Assembly: GCA_031260975.1 (NCBI GenBank) | Contig: JAISKJ010000003.1 | Location: forward strand, 65,480 to 129,479 | Origin: Christensenellaceae bacterium | GTDB lineage: Bacteria; Bacillota; Clostridia; Christensenellales; UBA1242 | DNA: 64,000 bases | Direction: 5' to 3' | Shown here: positions 2,402 to 46,028 of the stretch, one piece after another | How positions within the stretch are numbered: the first letter of the stretch is position 1 | Layout: each line of letters starts with the position of its first letter | Program-made: the position numbers and the translations under genes | Notes under the pieces: generated by a model | The model's database searches: none | Told to the model about the DNA's origin: nothing | Seen by the model: the letters and a program-made list of their open reading frames with translations, nothing else

Positions 2402-2403
2402 AT

Positions 2404-2437
2404 AAAAAATCCCCGCGCTTTACGTGAGGATTTTTTT
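2404..2437. terminator. bidirectional intrinsic terminator between convergent genes
   Basis: A-run, stem ATCCCCGCG / CGTGAGGAT (8 of 9 pairs), then a T7 run. Confidence 0.7.
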
Positions 2438-2439
2438 AA

Positions 2440-2643
2440 TTACATTTTGTATTTTTTCTGGAACTTTTCTACACGGCCGCTGGTGTCGACTATCTTTTGT
2501 TTGCCGGTATAAAACGGGTGGCATTTGTTGCAAATTTCCACCTTTATAACTTCTCCCGCTTTGGTTGAACGGGTTTTAAATTTTTCGCCGCAAGCGCAGA
2601 TAACTTCAACTTCATGATAATCCGGATGTAAATCTTTTTTCAT
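2440..2643 (-). CDS. rpmE: 50S ribosomal protein L31 (Cys-containing form)
   Basis: [22 protein letters not shown]...[13 protein letters not shown] is the classic L31 sequence with its zinc motif. Confidence 0.95.
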
Positions 2644-2847
2644 AGTCCTTCACCTCTATCTAAAATTTGTTTTACAAGTATACTATATAGTTTTGCTTTC
2701 GTCAACCCTTTTTGAGAGTTTTGCCATATATTTAGGCCCTAAAGCTCACTGCATTAAAGAAAGAGCCTTTTTCTTATGTAAATTACTTGACAAAATCCGA
2801 CAATTTTATTAACATTATGTCGACTCTCTCAAAAGGAGGCTTGGAGT

Positions 2848-4080
2848 ATGAGCAAGACATGGCGGAGTATTTTATATGCCATGGGCTCTCTTTCAGCCCT
2901 TTGTATTTTTATAGCGATTATGATTACGGTTGTTCCTCAAAACGAGGAACGTTTTTTGATTTTTTCAACCAATAAAATAGAAATTAACATAAACAGTGAG
3001 GTTGACCTGAAAAACATAAAAATTCAAACTAATCTGCCGCATAACGCAATAGAATTCAGCTCAGAAGATGAAAGCATTTTTATGATTGAAAACAACAAAA
3101 TCAAACCCGTGGGAATTGGCAGCGGCAAGCTTTTAGCTCAAGCGTCTGTGGGAGATAAGGTCTATCATAATTCTGTTTTGGTCGAAGTAAAGTCGCTGCC
3201 GGCAGACGACGATGACATAGATTTTGGCGTACAGTTGTGTTATAAGGGTTCGGTCTATGATTTTGCCGGATTTAATCAGGACATAAATTTATATTTGCCG
3301 GGCGGAACTTCTGCGGAGCATCAGGCAGCTGAGGCAGCAGGTTTTTTCAGGAGTTTTTATTTTGATATGCCGTCTGGTGTTGATGTTTCGGCTGACGGCC
3401 TGTGTGTAAGTGTCACAGAAAATATTGTTACTGCTTCAGGTGTAGGAAACTGTCTTATAAAGGTTACCAACAAAAACATAGGAAAGTTCAAAACCGTAAA
3501 GGTTTTTGTTTCAGGAATTCCGCTGACGGATGTTGTGCTTAGCTGCGATAGCAGCCTGACGCTTGAAGTAGGACAGTCAATGACATTGCCTGCCGTTCAG
3601 TTTACTCCGAGCTTTGCAAGTGATTTTTATAAAACTTCTTCGTTTGATATAAAAAATTCTAACATTGTATATTTTGATACAGACCGCTTTGTTGCCAAGA
3701 GTGTAGGGCAGACTCAAATAGTTTTTAAGTACGGCGAAATCGAAAAGACCGTTCAGATAGTGGTGATGCCCAAAGCACAAGAGATTGTTGCTGAATTTTT
3801 AATGATTGACCATCTGGGCAGAGCGACAATACGGGTTCAGTTATTTTTAAACGGTGCTCTTGTCGGAATATCGTCCGGCGCTGTAAGCACAAAATTTATA
3901 ATAGACGGCACGGAGTATGATACTCTGAATTATATGAGCTGCGGGCAAGACCTGAGTGCTTCAATGGTGTATGACTATGTATATAAAGTGAGCGGAGCGC
4001 TGCCTAATGAGTTTGCCGTCAAGTTTTATTTGACAAGCAATCCCGAAATATTTGAGATTGTTTATATTGTGATAAGCTGA
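2848..4080 (+). CDS. membrane-anchored protein with bacterial Ig-like (Big_2-type) repeats
   Basis: SD AGGAGG upstream, N-terminal TM helix, and repeated 'V..G.G...I.V' beta-repeat segments (KPVGIGSGKLLAQA, ASGVGNCLIKV, AKSVGQTQIVF). Confidence 0.55.
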   Translation: MSKTWRSILYAMGSLSALCIFIAIMITVVPQNEERFLIFSTNKIEININSEVDLKNIKIQTNLPHNAIEFSSEDESIFMIENNKIKPVGIGSGKLLAQASVGDKVYHNSVLVEVKSLPADDDDIDFGVQLCYKGSVYDFAGFNQDINLYLPGGTSAEHQAAEAAGFFRSFYFDMPSGVDVSADGLCVSVTENIVTASGVGNCLIKVTNKNIGKFKTVKVFVSGIPLTDVVLSCDSSLTLEVGQSMTLPAVQFTPSFASDFYKTSSFDIKNSNIVYFDTDRFVAKSVGQTQIVFKYGEIEKTVQIVVMPKAQEIVAEFLMIDHLGRATIRVQLFLNGALVGISSGAVSTKFIIDGTEYDTLNYMSCGQDLSASMVYDYVYKVSGALPNEFAVKFYLTSNPEIFEIVYIVIS

Positions 4081-4082
4081 TG

Positions 4083-4120
4083 CTTCATGTGTATAATCAT
4101 GAAGTTATTTGTCGTTTTTG
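4083..4120 (+). terminator. intrinsic terminator
   Basis: Stem CTTCATG (4083-4089) / CATGAAG (4098-4104), followed by a T-rich tract. Confidence 0.6.
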
Positions 4121-4221
4121 AGTAAACCTGTTTAATCGGTTGCCACGTCAGATAAAACCTAGTATAATTAGCATAGAGAATGATAGAAAATTATATTACA
4201 TTGACTTTTGTGGAGTGAAAT

Positions 4222-4932
4222 ATGGGTATTTTTGATGAAGAAATTTTTTATAACAGAGACGATTATGATGAGCTTGATTTTGCAGAACATAGGGATTTGT
4301 TTTTGCGTCTGCGAAGCTGGGTGGTTGATGCCGACAAGCCTACGAGATATAACAGAGACAAATATCGCAAGCTTGTTACTAAAAAAATTGAAGAAATAGC
4401 AGGCTACGCCTGCATGGGGCATATTCCGGCACAGGATTATATGGGGTATATTTATAAGCGGGGCTTTGGCGACTTTTTTCCGATAAACTATAAGCGAGCG
4501 CTTGAGTGGAACATAATGGCTGCCAGAAACAGCAGCAAGCTCGCTCCGCAAAAAATGAAAGCGTTTTTAAATCCTGCTATAGATAAAATTTTTGAGAGCC
4601 CAAGATTTGGTCAGGTTGTAAAGGCCAACGGGCTTAATTTACGCAACTATTATTGGTTTTTAAGTCAGTATATTTGCGACATTCTATATGATGAGATGAA
4701 GCTAAATCCACCGGATATGGCAAAGAAAGAACTCATTGAAGAAGATTTGAACGAAACAGGAACAATTATATCCTTGGACCGTATGAGAGACAGAAGCGTT
4801 GACAAGGCGCTGGAGCGGCTCATCAAGGAGCTTCCTGCAGATATTAAGGATGACGGCGATATAATCGTGTCGGCGGATGACCTAAAAGACCCCGATGAAA
4901 TTGATATAGAAATTGATACAAGTAAAATATAA
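4222..4932 (+). CDS. hypothetical protein with one Sel1-like repeat and an acidic C-terminus
   Basis: AQDYMGYIYKRGFGDFFPINYKRALEWNIMAA resembles a Sel1 repeat. An SD is present. No further assignment is possible. Confidence 0.4.
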   Translation: MGIFDEEIFYNRDDYDELDFAEHRDLFLRLRSWVVDADKPTRYNRDKYRKLVTKKIEEIAGYACMGHIPAQDYMGYIYKRGFGDFFPINYKRALEWNIMAARNSSKLAPQKMKAFLNPAIDKIFESPRFGQVVKANGLNLRNYYWFLSQYICDILYDEMKLNPPDMAKKELIEEDLNETGTIISLDRMRDRSVDKALERLIKELPADIKDDGDIIVSADDLKDPDEIDIEIDTSKI

Positions 4933-4971
4933 CATAACCTTTTATCAACTGCAATTAAAACAAAAAATATT

Positions 4972-5001
4972 TGAATGTAAAAGTTATGTTTAGGCATAAC
5001 T
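4972..5001 (+). promoter_or_regulatory. forespore sigma-G/F-like promoter candidate for spoVT
   Basis: TGAATG (4972-4977), 17-nt spacer, CATAACT (4995-5001). This is a partial match to GnATR / CATnnTA. It overlaps the ORF-track start at 4971, which argues for the ATG at 5028. Confidence 0.35.
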
Positions 5002-5027
5002 TTCTTTTTTGCATGCAAACTAACACT

Positions 5028-5522
5028 ATGAAAAAAGTGTCAGGAATTGTCCGCAAGCTTGACGAGCTGGGGCGAATAGTTGTACCAAAAGAAATAAGGC
5101 GCACGCTTAACCTTAGGGAGGGGAGCGATATTGAAATCATTCTGTCTGATGAGGAACTGATTTTGCGCAAGTTTTCAAGAATTTTTAATATCAAAAGCCA
5201 AGGCGAGCAAATTTTGGAAAGTCTTTATGAAATTGTGCAGTGTCCATGTATTATGACGGATAACGAAAGAGTAATTCTCGCCAAGGGTGCCGGTAAAAAA
5301 GACATGCTCGAACAAAAACTCACCAAAGAATTTTGTGACATAACAGTTGCCGGAGAGTATAAGGATATACAAATTATTTCCGGCAGAAATATAGACGGAT
5401 TTGTCGCTCCTGTTTTTTCGCAGGGGTTTTGGTGCGGTAGCATCGCTGTGCTGGGGGATGTTGGGGGCAAGGCTGAAGTAATCAATTTTGCTGCAAATTA
5501 TCTGTCTGGGCTTTTGGTGTAG
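5028..5522 (+). CDS. spoVT: stage V sporulation protein T (AbrB-type N-domain plus GAF-like C-domain)
   Basis: MKKVSGIVRKLDELGRIVVPKEIRRTLNLREGSDIEI matches the SpoVT/AbrB swapped-hairpin N-terminus. Length is about 165 aa. Start moved to internal M20. Confidence 0.85.
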   Translation: MKKVSGIVRKLDELGRIVVPKEIRRTLNLREGSDIEIILSDEELILRKFSRIFNIKSQGEQILESLYEIVQCPCIMTDNERVILAKGAGKKDMLEQKLTKEFCDITVAGEYKDIQIISGRNIDGFVAPVFSQGFWCGSIAVLGDVGGKAEVINFAANYLSGLLV

Positions 5523-5525
5523 CCT

Positions 5526-7094
5526 ATGAAGAAGCAATCGTTTGTGCTGGGAGCGCTTATCTTAAGTGTGAGCGGAGTTATCTGCAAAATTTTGGGCGCT
5601 TTTTATAAAATTCCGCTTACCAACATTTTGGGAACCGGCGGGATAGGCATCTATTATATGGTTTTTCCTGTTTTTGCGCTTATTCTGAGTCTTACTTCAA
5701 CCAGCATGCCCGCTGCAATTTCAAGACTTATAAGCCGCGAAATTGCTGTTGGCAATCCTTCAGGGGCGCGGCGTATTTTTAGGGGCGCACTGCTTATGCT
5801 CATGATTTTGAGCGGAGCATTTGCTTTGGTTTTGATGCTTCTTTCAGGTGTTTTATCTAGGCTTCAAGGTGCTCCGGATATTGCCTCAGGATATCTTGTT
5901 GTGGCCCCTGCAATATTTGTTGTGGGGGTGCTTTCGGCAATAAGAGGCTGGTTTCAGGGCCATATGGATATGGTACCAACGGGCGTTTCGCAAATTATTG
6001 AACAAATCTTTAAACTGTTTCTGGGTTTATTTCTTGCCGTAAAGCTTATGCCCCAAGGCTTAATTTACGGTGCCGTAGGAGCACTGCTAGGCATTACGCT
6101 CAGCGAGGTTTTTGCGCTGCTTTATATAATAATCCATTATTTGTTCACTAAAGAAAATATACCTGTGTCACGCTCTGATAAAGCTCCGATAAGAGAGACT
6201 ATAAGAGAGGTTTTTCTGGCGTCAGTTCCGTTTGTGCTGGGCTCGTCCATCTTTCCGCTGTCGCTTATGCTGGATAGTTTTTTGATAGTTAATCTTCTTG
6301 AACGCATCGGACTTTCAAACAGTTTGGCGGTGAGTCTGCTTGGCATAAACAGCGGAATTATCAGCACCATGATATCTTTGCCTACTATCATTTCGCTCTC
6401 GCTATCGTTTGCTATCATTCCGACTCTTGCGCGCAACAAAACCCAAGAGGATAGCACTAAAAAAGTTTCGCTTGCAATTAAGCTTAATTTGTTTTTACTT
6501 TTTCCGTGTGCACTTGTATATTTATTTTTTGCTCCTCAAATTTTGGGGCTACTGTTTGGCGCGGTTGAAGGGCTGAATATAGCTGCCGTACTTTTGCAGG
6601 TGTCGGCGGTAAGCGTGCTGTTTCTGGGTTTTTTGCAGCTTGTCACGGCAATCCTTCAGGGTATGGGAAAACCCTATGTGCCCGTCATAAGTTTGGGTAT
6701 TGCAATCGTGGTTAAGATTATTTTGGAGGTGATTTTGCTGGGCATACCCGGAGTCAATATTCTGGGTGCAGTGATTTCTAATATGGCGTGCTTCTTTGTG
6801 GGGCTTGTGATAAATCTAATATATTTAAGAAAGCTCGTAAGGTTTAGGGTAGGGGGTCTGACTCCAATGGTGCTTTCAAGCCTTGGGCTTTTGAGTGCAT
6901 GCTTTTTAGGCCTGCGGCTGTTTGACTTTTTGGGCGGCACCGGTTTAGTTTTGTCGTTTTTACTTGGTGCGACAGTTTTTGTGGGCCTTGTAATTTTGGG
7001 CGGAACTTTCAGCAAGCAGGAGTTGGGTTTTTTAATAAAGAAAAAACAGAATATCACTCAGAGTTCGGATGGAGTAGAGCTGCCGCCGGAATGA
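5526..7094 (+). CDS. MOP-superfamily polysaccharide/lipid II flippase (SpoVB/YabM/MurJ-like)
   Basis: About 14 predicted TM helices, N-terminus FVLGALILSVSGVICKILGAFYKIPLTNILG, and a position directly after spoVT, as with yabM in Bacillus. Confidence 0.8.
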   Translation: MKKQSFVLGALILSVSGVICKILGAFYKIPLTNILGTGGIGIYYMVFPVFALILSLTSTSMPAAISRLISREIAVGNPSGARRIFRGALLMLMILSGAFALVLMLLSGVLSRLQGAPDIASGYLVVAPAIFVVGVLSAIRGWFQGHMDMVPTGVSQIIEQIFKLFLGLFLAVKLMPQGLIYGAVGALLGITLSEVFALLYIIIHYLFTKENIPVSRSDKAPIRETIREVFLASVPFVLGSSIFPLSLMLDSFLIVNLLERIGLSNSLAVSLLGINSGIISTMISLPTIISLSLSFAIIPTLARNKTQEDSTKKVSLAIKLNLFLLFPCALVYLFFAPQILGLLFGAVEGLNIAAVLLQVSAVSVLFLGFLQLVTAILQGMGKPYVPVISLGIAIVVKIILEVILLGIPGVNILGAVISNMACFFVGLVINLIYLRKLVRFRVGGLTPMVLSSLGLLSACFLGLRLFDFLGGTGLVLSFLLGATVFVGLVILGGTFSKQELGFLIKKKQNITQSSDGVELPPE

Positions 7095-7183
7095 AATGTA
7101 ACAAAGCATCTGAAAATAATCGGATTTTTTGAATAAAACTTTTTGCTTGGGTAATAATTGAGGCAACAAGGAGAAACATAAAT

Positions 7184-7456
7184 ATGAACAAAAAAGAATT
7201 GGTAAAATCGGCCAGCGCCAAATCGAAGCTTACTCAAAAAGAAACGCTTAATTGTCTCAATGCCATAACTGAGATTATTTATGATACGCTGAAACGCGGC
7301 GAGGCGGTAAGGCTTTTAGGGTTTGGTAAGTTTGAGGTAAGAGGCCGTGCTGAGCGGGTGAGCGTCAATCCGGTCACCAAACAGAAGATGATAATCCCTC
7401 ACAAGCTTGTTCCGTCGTTTAAAACAGGCAAGGCCTTTAAAAGCGCAATAAGATAA
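7184..7456 (+). CDS. hup: DNA-binding protein HU
   Basis: MNKKELV...GFGKFEVRGRAERVSVNPVTKQKMIIP...PSFKTGKAFK is the HU/IHF fold signature. Confidence 0.92.
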   Translation: MNKKELVKSASAKSKLTQKETLNCLNAITEIIYDTLKRGEAVRLLGFGKFEVRGRAERVSVNPVTKQKMIIPHKLVPSFKTGKAFKSAIR

Positions 7457-7461
7457 CAAAA

Positions 7462-7490
7462 AAGACTGACCGTTCGGTCGGTCTTTTTTG
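7462..7490. terminator. bidirectional intrinsic terminator
   Basis: AAAAAAGACTGACCG-TTCG-GTCGGTCTTTTTT, between convergent genes. Confidence 0.75.
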
Positions 7491-7503
7491 ATGCGGATAT
7501 TTA

Positions 7504-7725
7504 TTAGGTTTCGTTCGGCTTTATTCCGGTCATTTTGGTTACCCAATAAGACAGCACTTCAGAGTGGTTCATCTCGTCGCTTATTATCTCCTCGACTTGT
7601 GCTATAAATTCTTTTGGAGCATTGTTACGTTTTGCTTCGTCAATCAGAAGGTAATAGCCTTCAATTGCTTCCTGTTCGCTTTTGTTGTTTTTGGCAATCT
7701 CACTTGCCATTTGTTCAATTGTCAT
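7504..7725 (-). CDS. small helical hypothetical protein (possibly ferritin/rubrerythrin-like)
   Basis: Good SD (AGAGGTG). The EAIEGYY...DEMNHSE motif is reminiscent of ExxH diiron helices. This is a weak assignment. Confidence 0.4.
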   Translation of the reverse strand: MTIEQMASEIAKNNKSEQEAIEGYYLLIDEAKRNNAPKEFIAQVEEIISDEMNHSEVLSYWVTKMTGIKPNET

Positions 7726-7947
7726 AAAATCACCTCTTTTTTGCGTAGTATCTTTGGCATGCGGTTAAGTCTGTGCCTGCAGCTTCAGTGCCCCTTGCGC
7801 GCTGTTTTGTGAAAGTAATATATGCCGGTTGTTAAAAAAATGTGAAATGCACATACTAAACCCTGAAATTTGTCGCAAAATCATTTATTTTGATATACAA
7901 CTTTGTTTAAATCTGATAGAATAGCACAAAAGGTAACCAATTAATTT

Positions 7948-9573
7948 ATGGAAATATTTTTTGGGATAGTAACTTTTTTGGTGGGGCTCGGAGTTATGCT
8001 GTTTGGCGTAAAAATGACCAGCGAGGCCCTGGAGCGCACCACCGGAAGCAAGTTTAGAAATGTAATAACAAAAGCCACAAGAAATCCTTTTGGTGCGGCC
8101 GGTATTGGATTGGGTTTTACCACCATTCTTCAGAGTTCTACTGCCTCTATGGGGCTGTTTGCGGCGCTTTGCAACGCAGGCGTAATAACTCTTATTCAGG
8201 CTGTCGGAATTGTGTTTGGCGTCAATGTGGGTGCAGCCGTTGTGCACGGACTTATTGTTATAGGGTCATTAAAAGTTTTGAAGGTTTTAAGCCTTGTTAT
8301 AATTGTAGGAATGTTTGTGCTTTTATTTTCAAAGTCTATCAAGGTTAAAAACTTTGCTAGGCTGTTTGTCTTTATAGGATTGTTGTTTTTGGGTATTACC
8401 ATAATGTCTGACGGTATGGGCATGCTTAATGATTTGCACTTGTTTGACGGATTTGCTAATTTTATCAGCCATCCTATACTAATATTTCTAACATTTACAG
8501 TTCTTACCTGCCTGCTTCAAACCTCGCTTGGAGCCTTTGCTGTGCTCATAAGCTTTTTGACAGCGGGCATTATATCGGTTGATTTGGCACTTTGGGGTGC
8601 AATCGGTCTTAACATAGGTACTGCTTTGTCATCAATGCTGGTAACGCTGGGCGGAACACTTACTGCAAAGAGAATGGGTATGGTGCATGTGCTGTTTAAT
8701 GTTGTAGGCGCTGTAGTCTTTAGCATAATGCTTGCGTGCGTGCCGCTTTTGGGGACATATATGGAGCAGTGGGTAGGTTCGGCTATGTTTGCGGTGTTGC
8801 TGTTTGATATAATATTTAATATTGTTATAGCCCTTACGCTTATTCCTTTAAGAAAACATGTTACAAATTTGGCAGCGGCTGTGTTTAAGGAGAAGCAGAG
8901 AAGGCATCATCAAAGTGCACTTCCTGCTGTTGCCGAAATTACTGCAGCAACGGCGGTGCCGGTTATGCTAAATAGCCTGATAGATATCTATACCAAACTC
9001 AGCGGGCACTTCTTTAAGAGTGTGGAGTGTGCCTTCAGCGATGATGAAGAAGAAAAGAAGTTTATTGAAGATGATGTTGCAAAAATAAACAGTTACACCT
9101 TTGAAATAGAAAAGACAATAATGAATGTGTCCTCCGGCGTAAGTGAAGGGGATCAGGCCAAACTTTCAAAGATTTTAGATATTGTTCATAAAAACCGAAC
9201 CATTATCAGAAAGATACAAAAGATAATATTTTTTAGCCTTAGAGCAGAAAATCATAAAAAACATTTTACACGGGCGCAAGAAAAGAGTATAAAAGAAATG
9301 ACCGACAAAGTGCTTCTTATAAGTGTAGCTTCGCTTACGGCTCTGCGTATGTTTGACAGCACGGCCGAATTTGACCGAAATGCTTTGATGGTAAGGGTGC
9401 TGGAGCTTGACAGCGATGTTGATAAAATTAAGGCGCAGACCAGAGAGGCGGCAACAGCTGCTCTTAAAAATAAAACTGAGAACGCCGAAAACTTTACTAT
9501 ACACAACAGCATGATAAACGCTATAGATGACATCAGTGAAACGTTTGCGACAATTGCTATGATAGCGTCTTAA
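7948..9573 (+). CDS. Na+/phosphate cotransporter family protein with PhoU-like C-terminal domain
   Basis: Duplicated membrane repeats with ILQSSTASMG / LLQTSLGAF motifs and a helical soluble C-terminus. Confidence 0.8.
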   Translation: MEIFFGIVTFLVGLGVMLFGVKMTSEALERTTGSKFRNVITKATRNPFGAAGIGLGFTTILQSSTASMGLFAALCNAGVITLIQAVGIVFGVNVGAAVVHGLIVIGSLKVLKVLSLVIIVGMFVLLFSKSIKVKNFARLFVFIGLLFLGITIMSDGMGMLNDLHLFDGFANFISHPILIFLTFTVLTCLLQTSLGAFAVLISFLTAGIISVDLALWGAIGLNIGTALSSMLVTLGGTLTAKRMGMVHVLFNVVGAVVFSIMLACVPLLGTYMEQWVGSAMFAVLLFDIIFNIVIALTLIPLRKHVTNLAAAVFKEKQRRHHQSALPAVAEITAATAVPVMLNSLIDIYTKLSGHFFKSVECAFSDDEEEKKFIEDDVAKINSYTFEIEKTIMNVSSGVSEGDQAKLSKILDIVHKNRTIIRKIQKIIFFSLRAENHKKHFTRAQEKSIKEMTDKVLLISVASLTALRMFDSTAEFDRNALMVRVLELDSDVDKIKAQTREAATAALKNKTENAENFTIHNSMINAIDDISETFATIAMIAS

Positions 9574-39613: not shown

Positions 39614-40531
39614 TTAAACGGCATGAGACTGTGAAACAAACTCATACGCCGCTTGAAAACTGAAAGAGATTTTTAAGCCTCTTACACAAAATGTGCCGCA
39701 CATCTCGGCGCTGAGGCTTTCGGTTATGGCGTCTTTCATTTTGCCTCCTTCAGCCGGAGCCGGCAGGATGTGACCTTTGGTACTATTTTTAATATCAAAC
39801 TCAATATAGTTTTTTCCTTTTTTGAGTTTTGCCTTAAAGTGTTGCTCACTTTCTTTTGTAATGCTAAGTTTTGCTAAGGTATAGAGCGAAAAATTATACT
39901 GTTTTCCTTTATGAAGAATAATACACAAAAATCCGCGCATCCCCAAAGTAAGCGGATGGGCGTAGGCAAACATTATGCTGAGCTCATTATTCATTCCGTG
40001 CGCCCACACATAGTTTTTGGGAAAGTTGCTTCCAAAATCCTTTTCTATGTATCCTAAAGAATTTACTTTGGTTTTCTGGTTATTTAATGCAATCGTTCCG
40101 CTAACATTGTGTTTTAGTGAAATTACAGCATGGTTGCAACGCATTTTAAGGTATCCGAACGGACCCATCACAGAAGGTGAGTAAATGCTTTTTTTAAATA
40201 AGCTGTGATTTGAAAGCTTTAGATGGGTGCAGAGAGTTATGCCCGCATCTTGTAAGTCTACTGTAATTTGGTTGAGACTGAATATATTTTTTGCTATGGT
40301 GATGGTCATATTTTGCTTGTCAAATTTAAATTCACTTAAATCAAATCTGAAATAATGACTGAACGCCCGGCTTATAAACATTATGAAGCTGTGCGGGTCC
40401 GCCATGTTTTTGCTCACTCCGGCAATAAAAGAAAAAGGATGGTCTCTCGCAGTGCGAAAATACCACCCTTCAAAATAGTCGGTTTTGTTTTTGCCCAAAT
40501 AGTTTTGTGTGTTAAAAGCTTTTTTAAACAT
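39614..40531 (-). CDS. tocopherol-cyclase-family-like protein
   Basis: The N-terminal DYFEGWYFR matches the remembered FFEGWYFR hallmark of tocopherol cyclase (VTE1/PF14249). The start overlaps the upstream stop by 8 nt. Confidence 0.5.
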   Translation of the reverse strand: MFKKAFNTQNYLGKNKTDYFEGWYFRTARDHPFSFIAGVSKNMADPHSFIMFISRAFSHYFRFDLSEFKFDKQNMTITIAKNIFSLNQITVDLQDAGITLCTHLKLSNHSLFKKSIYSPSVMGPFGYLKMRCNHAVISLKHNVSGTIALNNQKTKVNSLGYIEKDFGSNFPKNYVWAHGMNNELSIMFAYAHPLTLGMRGFLCIILHKGKQYNFSLYTLAKLSITKESEQHFKAKLKKGKNYIEFDIKNSTKGHILPAPAEGGKMKDAITESLSAEMCGTFCVRGLKISFSFQAAYEFVSQSHAV

Positions 40532-42017
40532 TGTCTTTTTTCTCCAGATTTATTAAAGCCGGCCCGTTTAGCAGCCGCCCATCATAATCAAACCTCGAAC
40601 CGTGGCATTTGCAGTCCCATGAAAGCTCGTCTTTGTTCCATGTAAGTGCGCAGCCCATATGTGGGCACGCTGCTAAAACACAGTGCAGCCTTCCGTCATC
40701 ATCTCTGTATGCTCCCACGCGATGGCCCTTGACTTTTACTATCGCTCCTTGACCGGGTCCTATGTTTTCAAACTTCTTCCGGTCGGTGTTAAAAACCAAT
40801 TGCGCAAACCCTGAAATGACATCACTCAGATTTTGCGCGGCTTTAATGGGTGCCATAAGCATGCTTGCCCTCTGCGGGCTGAAAATGCTGTCTGATATTT
40901 TACCATCTATCAGGTCTGATATAATCTGTGCCGCTGCAAAAGAGTTGGTAAATCCCCACTTATTAAAGCCCGTTATCACATATACATTATCCCATGATAC
41001 GCTGTATTTGCCTACAAACGGCATCAGGTCAAAGGTCATTACATCTTGAGCGGCAAAACGGGTCATTATGTGATGGGGCATAACTTTGAGGTGCTCTGAC
41101 AAAAACTTTTCCATCTTTTTAAATCTGCTTTCATATTTTCCGGTTCCTGTACGCCCGGCTCCGCCTCCGCACAAAATCCCGTCTTTAACAGGGCGGAATT
41201 CATACCATTCGTCATCAGTGCCTTCATATATGTTATTTAATTTTATTCCGTTATTAAAGGCAATATTACAATTTCGGTGCTGGTATAGCTTTAAAAAATA
41301 AAATCCCGGCATAATGTTTATATATGGGTAGTGACTTGCAATTATCAAATGCTTAAAACCGATTGAACAGCTGTTTACTTCCACATGGTTTTCTTTGGGT
41401 TCAGACTTTACGTGGGAGTTTTCATAAATTTTTCCGCCAAGCTTTTCAAAAGCCTTAGAGAGCCCTGCAATAAACTTGGCTGGGTTCAGATGTGCCTGAT
41501 TTCCGATGGCAAGCTGTTCAATTATGTTAAGAGGCAGCTCGGGTTCAAGTGAGGAAACAAAGGGCTCATTCAGTTGTTTGAAGGCTTCTTTTTCCTGCCG
41601 TATTTGTTTAGCTCCCTTTTCGGTGGCGGCAAACATAGTATAATTGGCCCGGGTATATTCGCAGTCGATTTTGTTTTTCATTATGATTTGCTCAAGCTTT
41701 TGAGCTCCAAGCTTTTGCAGGCGCAAAAACTCGGCAGCGGTTTGGGTCCCGTGCTTTTTTATAAGCCTGAAGTAAATCGGGTCATGAGCAAAGGTGATAA
41801 TGGCGCTTGAGCGGCTGGTTTCACCCGAGCCCACCCGCGCCGCTTCAAGTATACAAACCTTGTGCCCGCGCGACTGCAGCTCATATCCGCACGCAAGCCC
41901 TGCAAGGCCGCCGCCCACAATCACAATGTCATAATCTGCACTTGCCGAAACCGCAGGCCGCTCAGGCATCTGCGGCAATTTAAAATAATTGTTTTCCATA
42001 TTTTTAATTATTAACAT
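40524..42017 (-). CDS. FAD-dependent oxidoreductase with C-terminal Rieske [2Fe-2S] domain (YhfW-like)
   Basis: DYDIVIVGGGLAGLACGYEL (GxGxxG) and Rieske CPHMGC...CKCHGSRF. Confidence 0.85.
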   Translation of the reverse strand: MLIIKNMENNYFKLPQMPERPAVSASADYDIVIVGGGLAGLACGYELQSRGHKVCILEAARVGSGETSRSSAIITFAHDPIYFRLIKKHGTQTAAEFLRLQKLGAQKLEQIIMKNKIDCEYTRANYTMFAATEKGAKQIRQEKEAFKQLNEPFVSSLEPELPLNIIEQLAIGNQAHLNPAKFIAGLSKAFEKLGGKIYENSHVKSEPKENHVEVNSCSIGFKHLIIASHYPYINIMPGFYFLKLYQHRNCNIAFNNGIKLNNIYEGTDDEWYEFRPVKDGILCGGGAGRTGTGKYESRFKKMEKFLSEHLKVMPHHIMTRFAAQDVMTFDLMPFVGKYSVSWDNVYVITGFNKWGFTNSFAAAQIISDLIDGKISDSIFSPQRASMLMAPIKAAQNLSDVISGFAQLVFNTDRKKFENIGPGQGAIVKVKGHRVGAYRDDDGRLHCVLAACPHMGCALTWNKDELSWDCKCHGSRFDYDGRLLNGPALINLEKKDNV

Positions 42018-42085
42018 ATTTCTGGTGTATAAACAAAAATCGTTAGGTAGGCTAACGACTTTTGTTTGCTTAAACTAATTTAAGA

Positions 42086-42153
42086 CTTAAAGTAAATGTT
42101 TTGTGGGGGTAGCCTGTTTTGTACAAATTGAAAGAGGCTTGAAGTAAATGTTT
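42086..42153 (+). repeat. 16-nt direct repeat pair flanking the cassette promoter
   Basis: cttaaagtaaatgttt (42086-42101) and cttgaagtaaatgttt (42138-42153), 15/16 identical, starts 52 nt apart. Confidence 0.8.
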
Positions 42154-42157
42154 AAAC

Positions 42158-42186
42158 TTGCTAAAATCTACTTATTATGCTAAAAT
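42158..42186 (+). promoter_or_regulatory. sigma-A promoter of the three-gene cassette
   Basis: TTGCTA (42158-42163), 17-nt spacer, TGc-TAAAAT (42181-42186). Confidence 0.55.
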
Positions 42187-42218
42187 AAAAACGTAAGAGC
42201 AATAACGGAGGTAACACT

Positions 42219-42722
42219 ATGACCCCAAACCAGATAAGAGACTTTAATGATAAGTGCGAAGATTTCTGCGACAAGCATAACTTCGACTATAATTTGTTTG
42301 TTGCAAGAATACTCAAAGAAAATGTAAATGCCTATGGGAAATTTGTGTCCACTCCAATTGAAACATTTGATGCAGGTGCTATATTGGGCGAAGATCGAGT
42401 TAATGAGATAAGAGAAGCTTATGAAGAAGATCTTAAAAATTTTAAGGTAAGAGTGGAGTTAATAAGTAATTGGTTGGGAATGGAAGAGTTGTATGTCGGC
42501 CTCTTCTGGCACATGTATACACCTGAAGGAATAGATAAAATATTTGAAAAAGATTCTGACCATTATAAGCAAGTCCAATCAGACTTTAAAGAAAAAGAAA
42601 CCAAACTAGATACGGATAGTATAAAGGCAGAAAAAGAAAATATTGCTGTTGAATTAATAGGACTTACCAAGTATGAAATACCTGCCCTTAAGGAAGAGTT
42701 GCAAGAAAAAACCTTTAGATAG
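42219..42722 (+). CDS. acidic helical hypothetical protein (cassette gene 1)
   Basis: SD GGAGGT is present. 167 aa, Glu/Asp/Lys-rich, with no motif I recognise. The next gene follows 8 nt downstream. Confidence 0.6.
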   Translation: MTPNQIRDFNDKCEDFCDKHNFDYNLFVARILKENVNAYGKFVSTPIETFDAGAILGEDRVNEIREAYEEDLKNFKVRVELISNWLGMEELYVGLFWHMYTPEGIDKIFEKDSDHYKQVQSDFKEKETKLDTDSIKAEKENIAVELIGLTKYEIPALKEELQEKTFR

Positions 42723-42730
42723 GAGTACAT

Positions 42731-44113
42731 ATGGTAGATTGGAAGAAAGTAGAACCAAGCACGAAAGAAAGCTTTTCTTTGGAAGAGCAGAAAGCCTTGT
42801 TGTCTCTTATTTCTCTGCCCGATAAATATGTGCTGCTGAACCTAATAAAAAAGTATTCCGGAGAGAAAACCTCTCTGCCGATTGTTAACGAAGAAAGCAT
42901 TAAAGATACAAGAACAAGAGTTAATTCAATGAAGAAGAATGACAATTTCCCGACCGAGGATGAAATTAACAATTGGAAAAAGGAAGAAATTAATAAAATT
43001 ATACAAAAGCAGCTGAATGACCCTAATGTTTCCAGACGTTCAAGGCTTACATTAGTTATTGGTTCGGCCGGTGCCGGAAAATCAACTACGAGTGAGCATA
43101 TTTCAAAAGACAAGCGTGCGTTCCATGCAGATGCCGACCACATTAAAAAGCGTATAGCTGAGGATTTTGATTGTGACATTAATCATGATAACATGCATAA
43201 CATAAGTACAGACATAATTAAGGAAGTGATTGCCGCAGCCGCGCCACATAAATTGGATGTTGTATTAGAGAAAATCGGAGAGAAACCGCACAAAATCTAT
43301 AAACAGATTATGGAACTTGAAGCCCTGAAGTATTCTATTGGATTAAACTTGGTTCATGTTTGTGAAGAAATTGCAAGAACAAGAAACAATGACAGAGCAA
43401 ATGAGTTGATGGCTAAAAATGAACCGCCTAGGTTTGTTGAGGATGAATTGCTGAAAGAATTCGGTGAAGGGCCTTTCTTCTCGTATCTTTTTTTGGCAGT
43501 CAGATGCCCGGAAAAATTCTCATATTGCAAAGCATTTAGCAATGAAGGACCGTTGCGTGAACTGCCTATACCGCTTCATACATTATCCGTCAAAGACGGA
43601 AAGATATTGGGACCAGCAAATGACCCATGTGCAAAGAAAGTTGATGAACAAATATCATCCATATGTTTAAAAAGCACCGTTCGGGCACTTAAGTCGCTAA
43701 ATGAAGAGCGGGAAGATGCAAGTATAAAATATTTAACAAGTAAGATGGAAGTATTATGTTCAGACGATGAAAAGGCAAAAAAAGAAGTAAAAGATTCTAT
43801 TGAAAGAATTCGTGTGAAAAAAGATTGTGGTGTGGAGTGTATGCCTGAGGAAGCAAAACTGCTTGACTTATATGACAATGTGCAGACAAATAAGCACGGA
43901 GCGTTAATGCGGATTTATGACCCGCAGAATATTGACGACAGAGAATTGTTAGAGAAAAATGAAGATGGAGGTTTGGCAATAACCTTTGTCTTTGAAAGTG
44001 TTGTAGGCAAGCCCCACAACACAGATAGATATAACGAGCCGTATGAATTGGTAAATGCAACAAAAGACAAAGTTGGCACCATACTAGGCTTAAGTAAAGA
44101 GGTTTCACAATGA
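42731..44113 (+). CDS. zeta-toxin-like P-loop kinase with unassigned N- and C-terminal domains (cassette gene 2)
   Basis: Walker A LVIGSAGAGKST, then FHADADHIKKRI, LDVVLEKIG and IGLNLVHVCEEIARTRNNDR, in the order seen in zeta/AAA_33 kinases. About 100 aa N-terminal and about 190 aa C-terminal are unassigned. Confidence 0.6.
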   Translation: MVDWKKVEPSTKESFSLEEQKALLSLISLPDKYVLLNLIKKYSGEKTSLPIVNEESIKDTRTRVNSMKKNDNFPTEDEINNWKKEEINKIIQKQLNDPNVSRRSRLTLVIGSAGAGKSTTSEHISKDKRAFHADADHIKKRIAEDFDCDINHDNMHNISTDIIKEVIAAAAPHKLDVVLEKIGEKPHKIYKQIMELEALKYSIGLNLVHVCEEIARTRNNDRANELMAKNEPPRFVEDELLKEFGEGPFFSYLFLAVRCPEKFSYCKAFSNEGPLRELPIPLHTLSVKDGKILGPANDPCAKKVDEQISSICLKSTVRALKSLNEEREDASIKYLTSKMEVLCSDDEKAKKEVKDSIERIRVKKDCGVECMPEEAKLLDLYDNVQTNKHGALMRIYDPQNIDDRELLEKNEDGGLAITFVFESVVGKPHNTDRYNEPYELVNATKDKVGTILGLSKEVSQ

Positions 44114-44955
44114 TAGATTTACATATTCATTCCAGCCATTCTGATGGTGATTATGAGGTTAATGAATTAATATCGAAAATTCATTCGGCGGGAATTACCG
44201 TCTTTTCTATAACTGACCATGATGAATTTCGGGCTTGTGTTGAAATATTAAACAATAATCTTGTTCCTCAAGGGATGAAATTTGTAACAGGGATAGAATT
44301 TTCTACAATTCATAATAATAAAAAAATGCATATTCTGGGCTACGGATTTGATATTAAAAACAAACAATTTGTGCAAAGAGTTGCAAGGCTTCGAGAGATG
44401 CGTAAGGAAAGGGTATCTAAACTGCTTGTTTTCTTAAAGCAGGAATTCGGGATTGTAATTGAAGACAAGGAAATAAATAACATATTGAAAGTAAGACCTT
44501 GTATCGGCAAGCCGCATATTGCTCATATACTAATACAAAAAGGTTTGGTGAGTTCAGTTAAAGAGGCATTTGATAAATATTTAAAAAAATTTTCGATGTC
44601 TGAAATGAAAATAAAAGCAGTTGAGGCTATACAAATAATCAAACAAGCCAAGGGCTTTGCTTTTGTTGCTCATCCAAAAGAAATAATGTATGACTATAAT
44701 TTAACCTATAGCCAAATAGATTCTATAATAAGAGAGCTCGCGGCCAAGGGGCTGGATGGTATTGAGGCTTATTATAATACACATACCGAAAAAGACATTA
44801 AGGAATTTCTGCAAATTGCCGATAAATATAATCTTCTGGTTTCTTGCGGAAGTGATTTTCATGGCGAAAAAACTAAACCGAACATAAAGCTGAGTTCGGT
44901 TGGAAAAGAGGGTTTGACAGAAAAAGAAGTAACTCTTATTAATAAATTGAAGTAA
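44110..44955 (+). CDS. PHP-domain phosphoesterase (TrpH/YciV-like; cassette gene 3)
   Basis: MIDLHIHSSHSDGD...SITDHDEF...AHP...GSDFHG. ATGA start/stop overlap with gene 2. Confidence 0.85.
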   Translation: MIDLHIHSSHSDGDYEVNELISKIHSAGITVFSITDHDEFRACVEILNNNLVPQGMKFVTGIEFSTIHNNKKMHILGYGFDIKNKQFVQRVARLREMRKERVSKLLVFLKQEFGIVIEDKEINNILKVRPCIGKPHIAHILIQKGLVSSVKEAFDKYLKKFSMSEMKIKAVEAIQIIKQAKGFAFVAHPKEIMYDYNLTYSQIDSIIRELAAKGLDGIEAYYNTHTEKDIKEFLQIADKYNLLVSCGSDFHGEKTKPNIKLSSVGKEGLTEKEVTLINKLK

Positions 44956-45021: not shown

Positions 45022-45147
45022 CTACATCAGCGAAATAATTAATTTGCTCTTCTGAAAGTTTCTTTCTTTTTCTTCTAGATAACCAGAATAATTTGTGCTG
45101 TAAATTATTGCTTCTCCGTTGTCAATTTCCAGAATTTTATTACTCAT
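45022..45147 (-). pseudogene. remnant of an ABC-F-type ATPase gene
   Basis: The hand-translated 41-codon ORF MSNKILEIDNGEAIIYSTNYSGYLEEKERNFQKSK... resembles the '...L..G.l..Y.GNYS.YLE.K' inter-domain linker region of ABC-F proteins. There is no full-length frame around it. Confidence 0.45.
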
Positions 45148-45317
45148 TCTGTCTAAAAAATATAAGACTTTATAGCAAAGTAGCTAAAAGTTTGATGCTG
45201 GAATTCTAAAAGGAACCTCACAAATGAAAGATTTTGATTATCGAGAGCTTCGACATGAGGGAGCTATTAGGTTTGACAAAGTAAATACGACAAGAGAGGG
45301 AATAAACATAAAACATA

Positions 45318-45349
45318 AAGTCACTTGTAATGTCAAGTGACTTTTTATA
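45318..45349 (+). terminator. strong intrinsic terminator
   Basis: AAGTCACTTG-TAATGT-CAAGTGACTTTTT. Confidence 0.8.
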
Positions 45350-45424: not shown

Positions 45425-45850
45425 TTACGTTATAAAATATTTTGAAAGCACAGTCTTTGATTGGTTTGCGGCACTAAGACCATGTGCCGAAATACGATAG
45501 CTTTTTGATTTGCCGTGTTCAATGCATTGCCATATAATATCAAAAGTTTCTTCTTTATTTTGTGATTTTGTATAATATTTAACAACAACCTTATAACCTT
45601 CTGTTATTTTTGCGCCTGCCGCAAGTGCCCCCGATTTTCTCATAGTAAGTGCATCAAGCTCATTATAAAATTCCTGTAAAATTACTTGGTCGGTAATCAC
45701 AATCTCATCATGAGATATACTTATTATTTTCGCCTGGTCAACACCGGAAAAAACACTTGTCCAAACAATGGGTGCTTCACCGCAAGCGGAAAAAAAGACT
45801 GCAGTAAACATAAATGCTAAACTCAACACACCCATTAAGATTTTTTTCAT
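45425..45850 (-). CDS. lipoprotein, unknown function
   Basis: Signal peptide with lipobox: MKKILMGVLSLAFMFTAVFFSAC|GE. SD GGGAGAG is present. Confidence 0.7.
   Translation of the reverse strand: MKKILMGVLSLAFMFTAVFFSACGEAPIVWTSVFSGVDQAKIISISHDEIVITDQVILQEFYNELDALTMRKSGALAAGAKITEGYKVVVKYYTKSQNKEETFDIIWQCIEHGKSKSYRISAHGLSAANQSKTVLSKYFIT

Positions 45851-45951: not shown

Positions 45952-46028
<77 letters not shown>

Follow-up and report, generated by a model that had tools for sequence, protein, structure and literature searches.

Zeta-fold kinases poison cells by phosphorylating UDP-sugars or NAD. In the epsilon/zeta and PezA/PezT toxin-antitoxin (TA) systems the kinases, of 253–287 amino acids (aa), act as 3'-kinases of UDP-N-acetylglucosamine (UDP-GlcNAc, or UNAG), and in AvrRxo1/Arc1 the partner Arc1 is about 98 aa long and is encoded downstream of its kinase. 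AvrRxo1, a type III effector of Gram-negative plant pathogens, is a zeta-fold kinase without the UNAG motif that phosphorylates the 3'-OH of NAD and is neutralised by its small partner (PMC5087710, PMC5491322), and the ng_epsilon1/ng_zeta1 pair of Neisseria gonorrhoeae (6EPH) includes a 401-aa zeta protein with an extra C-terminal domain and an altered substrate regiochemistry (PMC5923241). The present analysis concerns a cassette of three open reading frames (ORF1 to ORF3) at positions 42219–44955 of a 64,000-nucleotide stretch from a Christensenellaceae bacterium (assembly GCA_031260975.1, contig JAISKJ010000003.1, positions 65,480–129,479 of the forward strand), henceforth called the window. 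The cassette encodes a small acidic protein, a three-domain kinase whose core is assigned to the zeta-toxin class, and a PHP phosphoesterase; the first two genes form a core that is conserved at every related locus compared, and the third is a frequent accessory but not an obligate one.

Phosphoesterases of the RNase AM/Cv1693 class, to which the third gene is related, take the 3'-phosphate off nucleoside 3',5'-bisphosphates and break down short oligonucleotides that bear a 5'-phosphate, and the known members, unlike the kinase-coupled ORF3, are stand-alone housekeeping genes. RNase AM itself is a 5'-3' exoribonuclease (PMC7261194, PMC11528712). Two further groups of enzymes combine comparable chemistries. 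Pnkp of Clostridium thermocellum and of T4 (4GP7, 4MDE) resembles the cassette in joining a same-fold P-loop kinase to a phosphoesterase, but its activities are fused in one polypeptide and it has no small acidic partner; the Pnkp phosphoesterase is of the calcineurin or HAD type, not PHP, and Pnkp is linked to a ligase and Hen1, whereas genes of the ligase or Hen1 type are absent beside the cassette. The ppl/TrlF-type PHP-ATPases likewise contain a PHP domain and a P-loop NTPase, but in them both are fused into one protein of about 900 aa, and the ATPase is of a different class. An earlier examination of the same DNA, made from its letters alone (the sequence-only reading), had compared the cassette with ppl; the likeness of PHP and P-loop chemistry stands, although it amounts to a loose analogy, for ORF3 matches the TrlF PHP-ATPase model only partially, at 28.6 bits against a cut-off of 350. 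Identity with ppl or with a known defence system was rejected on this score and on the lack of a PADLOC match. Among the papers listed by a literature search, none describes an operon of a zeta kinase and a PHP enzyme.

Comparison With Known Zeta-Type Systems

The ORF2 core finds its best matches, in sequence and in structure, among the epsilon/zeta and PezA/PezT kinases (1GVN, 3Q8X, 2P5T). As in epsilon/zeta, the Walker A Lys, the catalytic Asp, the Glu after strand 3 and the lid Arg are kept, and the kinase gene directly follows, and is tightly coupled to, a gene for a small, acidic and predicted helical protein. Unlike zeta and PezT, ORF2 extends to 460 aa through additional N- and C-terminal helical domains; moreover, its UNAG contacts are replaced, its gene often shares an operon with a PHP gene, and its family has not been found on plasmids. 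Judged by sequence, with the substrate contacts apparently lost and a partner seemingly unrelated to epsilon or PezA, the cassette should not be classed among the UNAG-kinase TA systems of the epsilon/zeta type.

The resemblance to AvrRxo1/Arc1 (4Z8Q–4Z8V) is of another kind, in that AvrRxo1, like ORF2, is a larger zeta-fold kinase with added helical regions and without the UNAG motif, but a PHP partner is not known for it. The structural match between ORF2 and AvrRxo1 in Foldseek (E 4e-3 to 1e-2; query TM-score, TMq, 0.34–0.36; about 250 columns at 11% identity) is weaker than that to zeta. In turn, ng_zeta1 is evidence that a zeta core can accommodate extra domains as well as new substrates; unlike the helical bundle of ORF2, however, its extra domain is an OB fold and the enzyme still acts on UDP-sugars, and the ORF2 family profile matches it at the P-loop only (E 0.026). 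What sets the cassette apart from the known zeta-type systems is the combination of a three-domain kinase, a new partner family and a recurrent coupling to a PHP gene.

The ORF2 Kinase Family

The ORF2 core had been placed from motifs among zeta-toxin/AAA_33 kinases, and this call was confirmed by both Pfam cut-offs: Zeta_toxin (PF06414) matches residues 102–242 at 1.1e-11 and 45 bits (cut-off 22.3), and AAA_33 lies above its threshold (28 bits, cut-off 27). The motifs quoted for ORF2 and ORF3 are all present in the translations, and the family relatives P0124–P0129 likewise carry PF06414. A HMMER scan of 1.84 billion cluster representatives yielded 18 proteins at E ≤ 1e-10, of which about 16 constitute a coherent and very rare ORF2 family; its members are 331–600 aa long and 21–41% identical to ORF2, each cluster holds 1–4 member sequences, and the hosts are exclusively uncultured low-GC Clostridia. 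The remaining matches are generic zeta domains, many of them within giant polymorphic-toxin-like proteins.

Across 16 members of the family, invariant positions comprise G111, G116 and K117 (Walker A), D136, K139, N151, E180, K181, G183, N219, R222, R234, V236 and Y252. Because the catalytic residues are invariant despite an identity of 21–41%, ORF2 would be under selection to stay active, and it is predicted to be an active zeta-class P-loop kinase. When the family profile is compared with the PDB, zeta (1GVN) is the best match (E 1.4e-6), and the alignment pairs K117, D136, E180 and R222 of ORF2 with K46, D67, E116 and R158 of zeta. In zeta, D67 is the catalytic base (PMC3062530, PMC5923241), and E100, T118, R120 and T128 contact the ribose, phosphates and uracil of UDP-GlcNAc (PMC3062530). 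By the same profile alignment, four of the five zeta contacts with UDP-GlcNAc are replaced in ORF2 (E100 by K164, T118 by I182, R120 by E184 and T128 by Q192); the family columns are Ile/Val at zeta T118 and mostly Asp/Glu at R120, with Asn in one member. Since the residues that contact UDP in zeta are replaced, the substrate of ORF2 is probably something other than UDP-GlcNAc.

An AlphaFold2 (AF2) model of ORF2, built on the family alignment (predicted local distance difference test, pLDDT, 89.6; predicted TM-score 0.86), divides the protein into an N-terminal helical domain (about residues 1–100, helices 17–95), the kinase core (about 101–270; 105–270 in the model) and a C-terminal helical bundle (about 295–455; 299–451 in the model). 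In a Foldseek search of the PDB, zeta is the best match (E 4.9e-6), followed by PezT (1.3e-4), the C. thermocellum Pnkp kinase (5.5e-4) and AvrRxo1 (4e-3); the entries 3Q8X, 1GVN and 2P5T are retrieved at E 5e-6 to 4e-4 with a probability of 1.00, and the Pnkp kinase superposes with a TM-score of 0.68–0.69 on the target and a root-mean-square deviation of 3.7–3.9 over about 170 residues. Only the core of ORF2 matches solved structures, because the query TM-scores never exceed about 0.36, and a viral structure library gives the same picture (maximum TMq 0.40). The sequence-only reading had noted two unknown domains in ORF2, and they are as described: neither the N- nor the C-terminal domain has a detectable relative in Pfam, in the PDB by Foldseek or in the viral structure library. 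Domain match, catalytic residues and modelled fold all place the core within the Zeta_toxin superfamily; a weak match to a PHROG polynucleotide kinase (6.9e-4) was also recorded, and phage Pnk models occur among the BFVD matches.

The ORF1 Partner Family

ORF1 is acidic (pI 4.7) and, by a low-confidence AF2 prediction from the single sequence (pLDDT 40), all-helical. It had been reported to resemble nothing known, and the searches agree, as Pfam, NCBIfam, PADLOC, PHROG and PDB are all blank for ORF1; neither a helix-turn-helix (HTH) hit nor similarity to epsilon or PezA was detectable. Its family was traced through 12 loci with an ORF2 relative (the window, L001, L005, L007–L010, L012–L014, L017 and L018); the alignment used in the locus scans consisted of the five closest ORF2 family members. 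In all 12 an ORF1-family gene adjoins the kinase, upstream in 11 and downstream in L012.

These kinase-adjacent small ORFs measure 114–170 aa in every locus and diverge fast (12–32% identity), and pairwise similarity is clear for close members only; for instance, ORF1 of the window is 30% identical to its homologue in L005 (E 2e-25). A hidden Markov model (HMM) of the distant subgroup alone recovers the window ORF1 at E 1.8e-5 and the L018 ORF, which was not used for training, at 8e-18, and the HMM of the window subgroup finds the small ORF of L017 at 2.5e-6; neither model matches a non-partner ORF among 594 ORFs. A profile-profile comparison of the subgroups is weaker and points in the same direction (E 3e-4). 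By these cross-subgroup matches the small proteins belong to one new family, which makes ORF1 and the kinase the invariant core of the module. Acidity and fast divergence are typical traits of proteinaceous antidotes, and ORF1 is a putative inhibitor or partner of the kinase.

The ORF3 PHP Enzyme

The assignment of ORF3 as a PHP enzyme, proposed earlier from its metal-ligand pattern, is well founded: the Pfam PHP model matches at 4.3e-11, and the active site is intact, with all nine metal ligands (H5, H7, D12, H37, E63, H74, H188, D249 and H251) invariant across 118 aligned homologues. With the RNase AM/YciV/TrpH and Cv1693 enzymes, ORF3 shares these ligands and a full-length alignment (E 1e-18 to 5e-24). 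Specifically, it aligns end to end, over residues 2–252 or more, with 9ETK (P. aeruginosa RNase AM, 4.6e-24), 3E0F (1.4e-23), 2YB1 (Cv1693, 8.7e-22) and 7UG9 (a 5'-3' exoribonuclease, 5.1e-18), and 9ETK and 2YB1 each have a stretch that pairs in the alignment with its Arg-rich segment RLREMRKER. In NCBIfam, ORF3 scores highest against 3',5'-nucleoside bisphosphate phosphatase and RNase RNM, in both cases below the equivalog cut-off (NF041577, 156 versus 400 bits; NF047791, 134 versus 375 bits). ORF3 is thus classed, on sequence similarity, as a member of the TrpH/RNase AM/Cv1693 PHP family and not as an equivalog of either characterised activity. Because the scores lie so far under the cut-offs, the family is clear but an exact activity is not assigned, and the likeness to RNase AM and Cv1693 does not establish orthology or substrate.

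The PHP family of ORF3 is very widespread (564 matches), and none of the four PHP loci inspected outside the kinase family shows a zeta-family kinase. The closest relative of ORF3, P0005, is 55% identical and belongs to a cluster with radical-SAM, AAA_17+HAD and uracil phosphoribosyltransferase (UPRTase) genes; the PHP gene of P0006 adjoins genes for a ribulose-phosphate epimerase and a NUDIX protein, and that of P0063 adjoins an ABC transporter and DnaG. The PHP of L015 is sister to the kinase-linked clade; the 180-aa ORF upstream of it is not ORF1-like, and no kinase is visible before the contig ends. As a separate observation, the P0005-type cluster is present at L002 764–5636 and L003 987–4597, where a radical SAM/SPASM-like gene, the PHP gene, a 420-aa AAA_17 P-loop+HAD fusion and a UPRTase-like phosphoribosyltransferase gene are found; the fusion gene overlaps the PHP gene by 4 nt, and in L002 an HTH-PIN-ankyrin protein precedes the cluster. 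This cluster may be a second uncharacterised kinase-plus-PHP module acting on nucleotides or RNA. Kinship of ORF2 with the AAA_17+HAD protein was considered and set aside, the two giving only a short and doubtful local match (E 0.005).

Gene Order Across Kinase Loci

The gene orders of the 12 loci are listed in Table 1. The trio occurs in other genomes as well: the 4-nt overlap of kinase and PHP genes is found again in L009/L010 and in L014, and L012 has the three genes in a rearranged order. In sum, four divergent lineages have the PHP gene next to the kinase in the same orientation (three with the 4-nt overlap), a fifth has it nearby and four lack it there, and the flanking genes differ in each PHP-linked lineage. 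The trio as an obligate unit, by contrast, was not sustained, since the unit that stays constant is ORF1 with the kinase. In a neighbour-joining tree, the kinase-linked PHPs of L009, L010, L012 and L014 group together as a clade, and the nearest relatives of the window PHP are not kinase-linked. The idea that the PHP gene might be a housekeeping ortholog that occurs without the kinase was partly upheld by the size of its family and by the loci described above that show no such kinase; the trio still recurs, and chance would not account for an association so frequent and so tightly coupled.

Table 1. Gene order at the loci that contain an ORF2 relative
Locus	Gene order	PHP gene
Window	small ORF, kinase, PHP	adjacent, 4-nt overlap
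L009/L010 (two uncultured Clostridia metagenome-assembled genomes)	small ORF, kinase, PHP; type IV secretion system (T4SS) pilin and VirD4 upstream	4-nt overlap
L014	small ORF, kinase, PHP	adjacent, 4-nt overlap
L012	kinase, small ORF, PHP, directly after murA-ftsQ-ftsA-ftsZ	co-oriented
L005	small ORF, kinase, leucine-rich repeat gene, PHP	3.5 kb away, opposite strand
L007	small ORF, kinase, dCTP deaminase	none beside kinase
L008	NT5C, cupin, cytidine deaminase, small ORF, kinase, 57-aa minus-strand ORF, enolase	none
L013	small ORF, kinase, DUF3792	none
L017	small ORF, kinase, tRNA_edit, Abi_alpha	none
L001, L018	small ORF, kinase, contig end	status not visible

Two neighbourhoods merit separate mention. 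Classical zeta toxins yield a product that inhibits MurA, and the L012 module (1384–8617) follows murA-ftsQ-ftsA-ftsZ on the same strand, which may be coincidence or a clue. In L008 (1815–5775), genes for an alpha/beta hydrolase, an NT5C deoxyribonucleotidase, a cupin and a cytidine deaminase form a close, co-oriented run whose last two genes are the small ORF and the kinase, a run that hints at a link to nucleotide metabolism.

Mechanistic Interpretations

A plausible interpretation, though short of a probable one, is that the cassette represents a kinase-inhibitor module of the epsilon/zeta or AvrRxo1/Arc1 kind that acts on a nucleotide-type substrate and whose product is cleared by the PHP enzyme. 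ORF2, the putative toxic component, would phosphorylate a hydroxyl on an essential metabolite of the nucleotide type, or on the end of a nucleic acid, with the gamma-phosphate coming from ATP and Asp136 serving as catalytic base; ORF1 would keep ORF2 inactive by binding to it; and ORF3, translationally coupled to the kinase in several lineages, would hydrolyse or otherwise clear the phosphorylated product. Such a module would be enzymatically reversible and could be described as a 'writer, blocker, eraser' trio. The eraser role fits the chemistry of Cv1693-class enzymes, which hydrolyse a 3'-phosphate of the kind that an AvrRxo1-like 3'-kinase would leave on an adenosine nucleotide. The narrower version, in which the kinase 3'-phosphorylates an essential nucleotide or nucleotide cofactor other than UDP-GlcNAc, ORF1 blocks it and a dedicated PHP enzyme reverses the modification, is considered unlikely.

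In favour of the kinase-inhibitor interpretation count the zeta-class identity of ORF2, the constant and acidic partner, the recurrent coupling to a PHP gene amid different flanking genes, the precedent of AvrRxo1 and neighbours of a conflict type, namely the T4SS pilin and VirD4 beside the trio in L009/L010 and Abi_alpha in L017. Several observations weigh against it. ORF1 is unlike epsilon, PezA and Arc1, and its single-sequence model reaches a pLDDT of only 40; relatives in PADLOC, on plasmids or in phages were not found. Most of the loci are chromosomal, single-copy and situated beside housekeeping genes (ftsZ, yajC, eno, lysS, ddl), and the GC content of the module mostly tracks that of the host, a setting and a composition that are less typical of selfish TA modules. 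The adjacent PHP gene is missing in the L007, L008, L013 and L017 lineages, so the PHP enzyme is not essential in cis. Finally, ORF2 resembles the Pnkp kinase domain in structure almost as closely as it resembles zeta, and its substrate might therefore be a polynucleotide.

That last point leads to a sequential RNA-end pathway, a somewhat unlikely alternative in which ORF2 would be a polynucleotide 5'-OH kinase, ORF3 a 5'-3' exonuclease that degrades or trims the product, and ORF1 a regulatory or targeting subunit. Such an arrangement parallels the logic of Grc3-Rat1 or Trl1-Xrn1, or that of a split Pnkp-like end-healing module. It gains from the structural closeness of the C. thermocellum Pnkp kinase (E 5.5e-4), from the weak PHROG Pnk match and the phage Pnk models in BFVD, from the loss of the UNAG contacts and from the chromosomal, housekeeping-like contexts; P0005, moreover, is also translationally coupled to a P-loop protein, the AAA_17+HAD fusion, in a kinase-plus-phosphatase layout. 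The best solved relatives of ORF3 are themselves RNase AM 5'-3' exoribonucleases (9ETK, 7UG9; PMC7261194, PMC11528712). However, generic kinase and PNK models rank well below Zeta_toxin in the sequence profiles, known Pnk systems contain nothing like the constant, fast-evolving acidic partner, which is also an unlikely RNA binder, neither a ligase nor an RtcB gene is linked to the module, and four lineages lack an adjacent PHP gene.

A simpler proposal, also judged unlikely, is that ORF1 and ORF2 form a plain two-gene TA pair of the epsilon/zeta type that merely stands beside a functionally unlinked housekeeping RNase AM/TrpH gene. The constancy of the pair (12/12 loci) agrees with this, as do the lineages L007, L008, L013 and L017 without a PHP gene beside the kinase, the inverted PHP gene of L005, the huge size of the PHP family, the four inspected PHP loci outside the kinase family that have no zeta-family kinase, and the unlinked nearest relatives of the window PHP. 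Against it stands the kinase/PHP overlap of 4 nt in three lineages whose kinases are about 22–35% identical and whose flanks are unrelated; in L012 the PHP gene is retained in the operon despite the altered gene order, the linked PHPs form a clade, and adjacency of one gene by chance in 4–5 of nine lineages is very unlikely.

Improbable, too, and more so, is a non-toxic, lineage-specific role in nucleotide metabolism or salvage, with ORF2 as a regulated nucleoside or nucleotide kinase, ORF1 as its regulatory subunit and the PHP enzyme as a nucleotide phosphatase. The neighbouring genes lend it some colour: NT5C, cupin and cytidine deaminase genes are co-oriented just upstream in L008, dCTP deaminase and DHFR occur in L005 and L007, and the window has a HIT hydrolase 2.4 kb downstream; host-level GC in many loci and single-copy chromosomal sites agree with it as well. 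Yet the neighbours vary by locus, those shared by L005 and L007 probably reflect common ancestry, a match to a nucleoside or NMP kinase family does not reach its cut-off, and the extreme rarity of the module counts against metabolic necessity. The weakest candidate, an anti-phage abortive-infection or defence system of the kind that the sequence-only reading had suggested, is very improbable. Zeta-like kinases and PHP domains are both known in conflict systems, Abi_alpha lies in L017, the L009/L010 modules are conjugative-element cargo with toxin/immunity-like neighbours, and the cassette of the window is AT-rich. Against this, PADLOC gives nothing significant, the window contains no defence island, phage or plasmid relatives were not found, and the contexts are mostly of the housekeeping kind. 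In the interpretation first offered, the kinase, the PHP enzyme and the synteny across genomes stand, and the obligate trio and the defence role are not supported.

Seen as a family, ORF2 and its relatives appear to have kept the catalytic machinery and lost the UDP-sugar contacts, and to have gained two private domains and an obligate new partner, together with a repeated operon-level link to a phosphoesterase whose known chemistry could reverse 3'-phosphorylation or digest 5'-phosphorylated RNA. If kinase and phosphoesterase are antagonistic, the cassette would be the first zeta-family module with an enzymatic antidote or reset, analogous to the logic of DarT/DarG; if they act in sequence, it would be a bacterial kinase-plus-exonuclease couple for RNA clearance. 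Either way, it would provide a physiological context for TrpH/RNase AM-type PHP enzymes outside Proteobacteria and add a substrate class to the zeta family, and a true writer, blocker and eraser would mean a new physiological substrate class for TrpH-type PHP enzymes in Firmicutes. The practical impact is limited for now, because the ORF2 family is tiny and confined to uncultured Clostridia; as a lead, the cassette is well defined, very rare and amenable to experiment, and it has two distinct, testable mechanistic readings.

Mobility and Composition

The ORF2 family has no match in IMG/VR, among the INPHARED phages or among the PLSDB plasmids, and an origin from a phage or plasmid was discarded on this basis. 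In PADLOC-DB 2.0, likewise, nothing is significant, the best matches being PDC-S53 (1.1e-4, P-loop region only) and a TIR effector (2.7e-3), with none for ORF1. The cassette has a GC content of 0.36 versus 0.409 for the window, and 4% of the sliding windows of the same size are equally low; at third codon positions the GC content of its ORFs (0.28–0.36) lies under that of all 16 comparison ORFs (0.38–0.50). The row counts on which its AT-richness had been noted are exact (16/60 and 16/60 GC in two cassette rows versus 28/60 in an rplB row). Over the loci, the modules vary between 25% and 45% GC. Those of L009, L010, L013 and L014 match their hosts, those of L005, L017 and L018 lie above their flanks, and those of L001, L007, L008, L012 and the window lie below. 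AT-richness as a family-wide sign of horizontal transfer was rejected, given that module GC is at or above the host or flank level in many loci, and so was a tRNA-integrated island, the flanks having no integrase and the far boundary of the cassette no att-like copy of the tRNA 3' end.

Contexts that look mobile or conflict-related are limited to L009/L010, with a T4SS pilin, VirD4, toxin/immunity-like neighbours and GIY-YIG, and to L017, with Abi_alpha. Downstream of the trio in L009 (10556–12728) and L010 (12608–14787) are encoded a 211-aa protein that contains the motif HPHCHC, a pair of paralogues of about 114–127 aa that end in ...NLLGEKKNK[IV]PY[DN]YDS, and then a GIY-YIG nuclease; Pfam gave no match here, and the arrangement resembles that of a toxin accompanied by immunity genes in tandem. 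In L017 (4666–5967), a stand-alone tRNA_edit gene (YbaK/ProX-like) and an Abi_alpha gene (PF14337) follow the kinase in the place of the PHP gene, Abi_alpha standing two genes downstream.

Cassette Anatomy and Flanks

The features of the cassette and its surroundings are collected in Table 2. The three ORFs are co-oriented, with the gap and the overlap that had been given for them: the ORF1 stop codon TAG (42720–42722) is separated from the ORF2 ATG (42731) by 8 nt, and an AGGAG overlaps that stop, while the end of ORF2 and the start of ORF3 have the ATGA at 44110–44113 in common. Shine-Dalgarno-like sequences are GGAGG at about 42207–42211, 7 nt 5' of the ORF1 ATG, and AAAGAGG before ORF3.

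Table 2. Features of the cassette, its leader and its right flank in window coordinates
Feature	Position	Strand	Description
19-nt direct repeats AGRCTTRAAGTAAATGTTT	42083-42101, 42135-42153	+	89% identity, 52-nt spacing, ORF1 leader
Promoter-like sigma-70 sites	42139-42186	+	consensus matches only, upstream of ORF1
ORF1	42219-42722	+	167 aa, acidic, predicted all-helical partner protein
ORF2	42731-44113	+	460 aa, three-domain kinase with zeta-toxin-class P-loop core
ORF3	44110-44955	+	281 aa, PHP phosphoesterase, TrpH/YciV (RNase AM)/Cv1693 class
ABC-F fragment (ABC_tran_Xtn, PF12848, 8.2e-5)	45022-45147	-	41 aa, pseudogene debris outside the module
Terminator-like hairpin, bidirectional	45317-45344		strong, 11-bp stem; first good plus-strand terminator 3' of ORF3
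Apparently intact ORF	45425-45850	-	141 aa, lipoprotein-type signal sequence; between cassette and tRNA-Arg
tRNA-Arg(ACG)	45952-46028	-	3' end towards cassette

The gene debris and the tRNA-Arg reported on the right flank were both located, as the ABC-F fragment and the tRNA-Arg(ACG), and the 3' end of the latter faces the cassette because the tRNA is on the minus strand; the 141-aa ORF between them had gone unmentioned in that reading. A possible ATG-initiated ORF of about 38 codons was read in the sequence at about 45224–45340, and together with the ABC-F remnant it represents decayed gene material (45022–45147 and 45200–45320) between the cassette and the terminator hairpin.

The window is part of an 828-kb contig of a Christensenellaceae metagenome-assembled genome, and core chromosomal genes surround the cassette, including a ribosomal protein operon (rplB confirmed), SpoIIE, PrmC, a HIT protein and sugar-nucleotide genes. 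Upstream and divergent (39614–42017, minus strand) lie genes for a 497-aa fusion of a DAO-family FAD oxidoreductase with a Rieske domain and for a 305-aa protein that is weakly tocopherol-cyclase-like, a pair that is unusual for a Christensenellaceae genome.

Leader and RNA Elements

The sequence-only reading had credited the cassette with a promoter and Shine-Dalgarno sites of its own. The Shine-Dalgarno sequences were found; promoter-like sites also exist upstream of ORF1, but not in excess over shuffled sequence (19 versus 16.2 ± 4.5), and a promoter belonging to the cassette is plausible from the consensus matches. The second copy of the repeat AGRCTTRAAGTAAATGTTT (42135–42153) overlaps the -35 region of these sites, and the repeat pair could be an autoregulatory operator. 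A riboswitch, or an RNA element of another kind, was dismissed for both leader and cassette, the RNA scan having returned the tRNA only, and the leader fold is not unusual (z -1.56). Between the divergent DAO/Rieske gene and ORF1, a hairpin at 42030–42068 is flanked by an A-run and a T-run (AAACAAAAA-TCGTTAGG...CTAACGA-CTTTTGTTT); it has the shape of a bidirectional terminator, yet it is placed at the 5' ends of both neighbouring genes.

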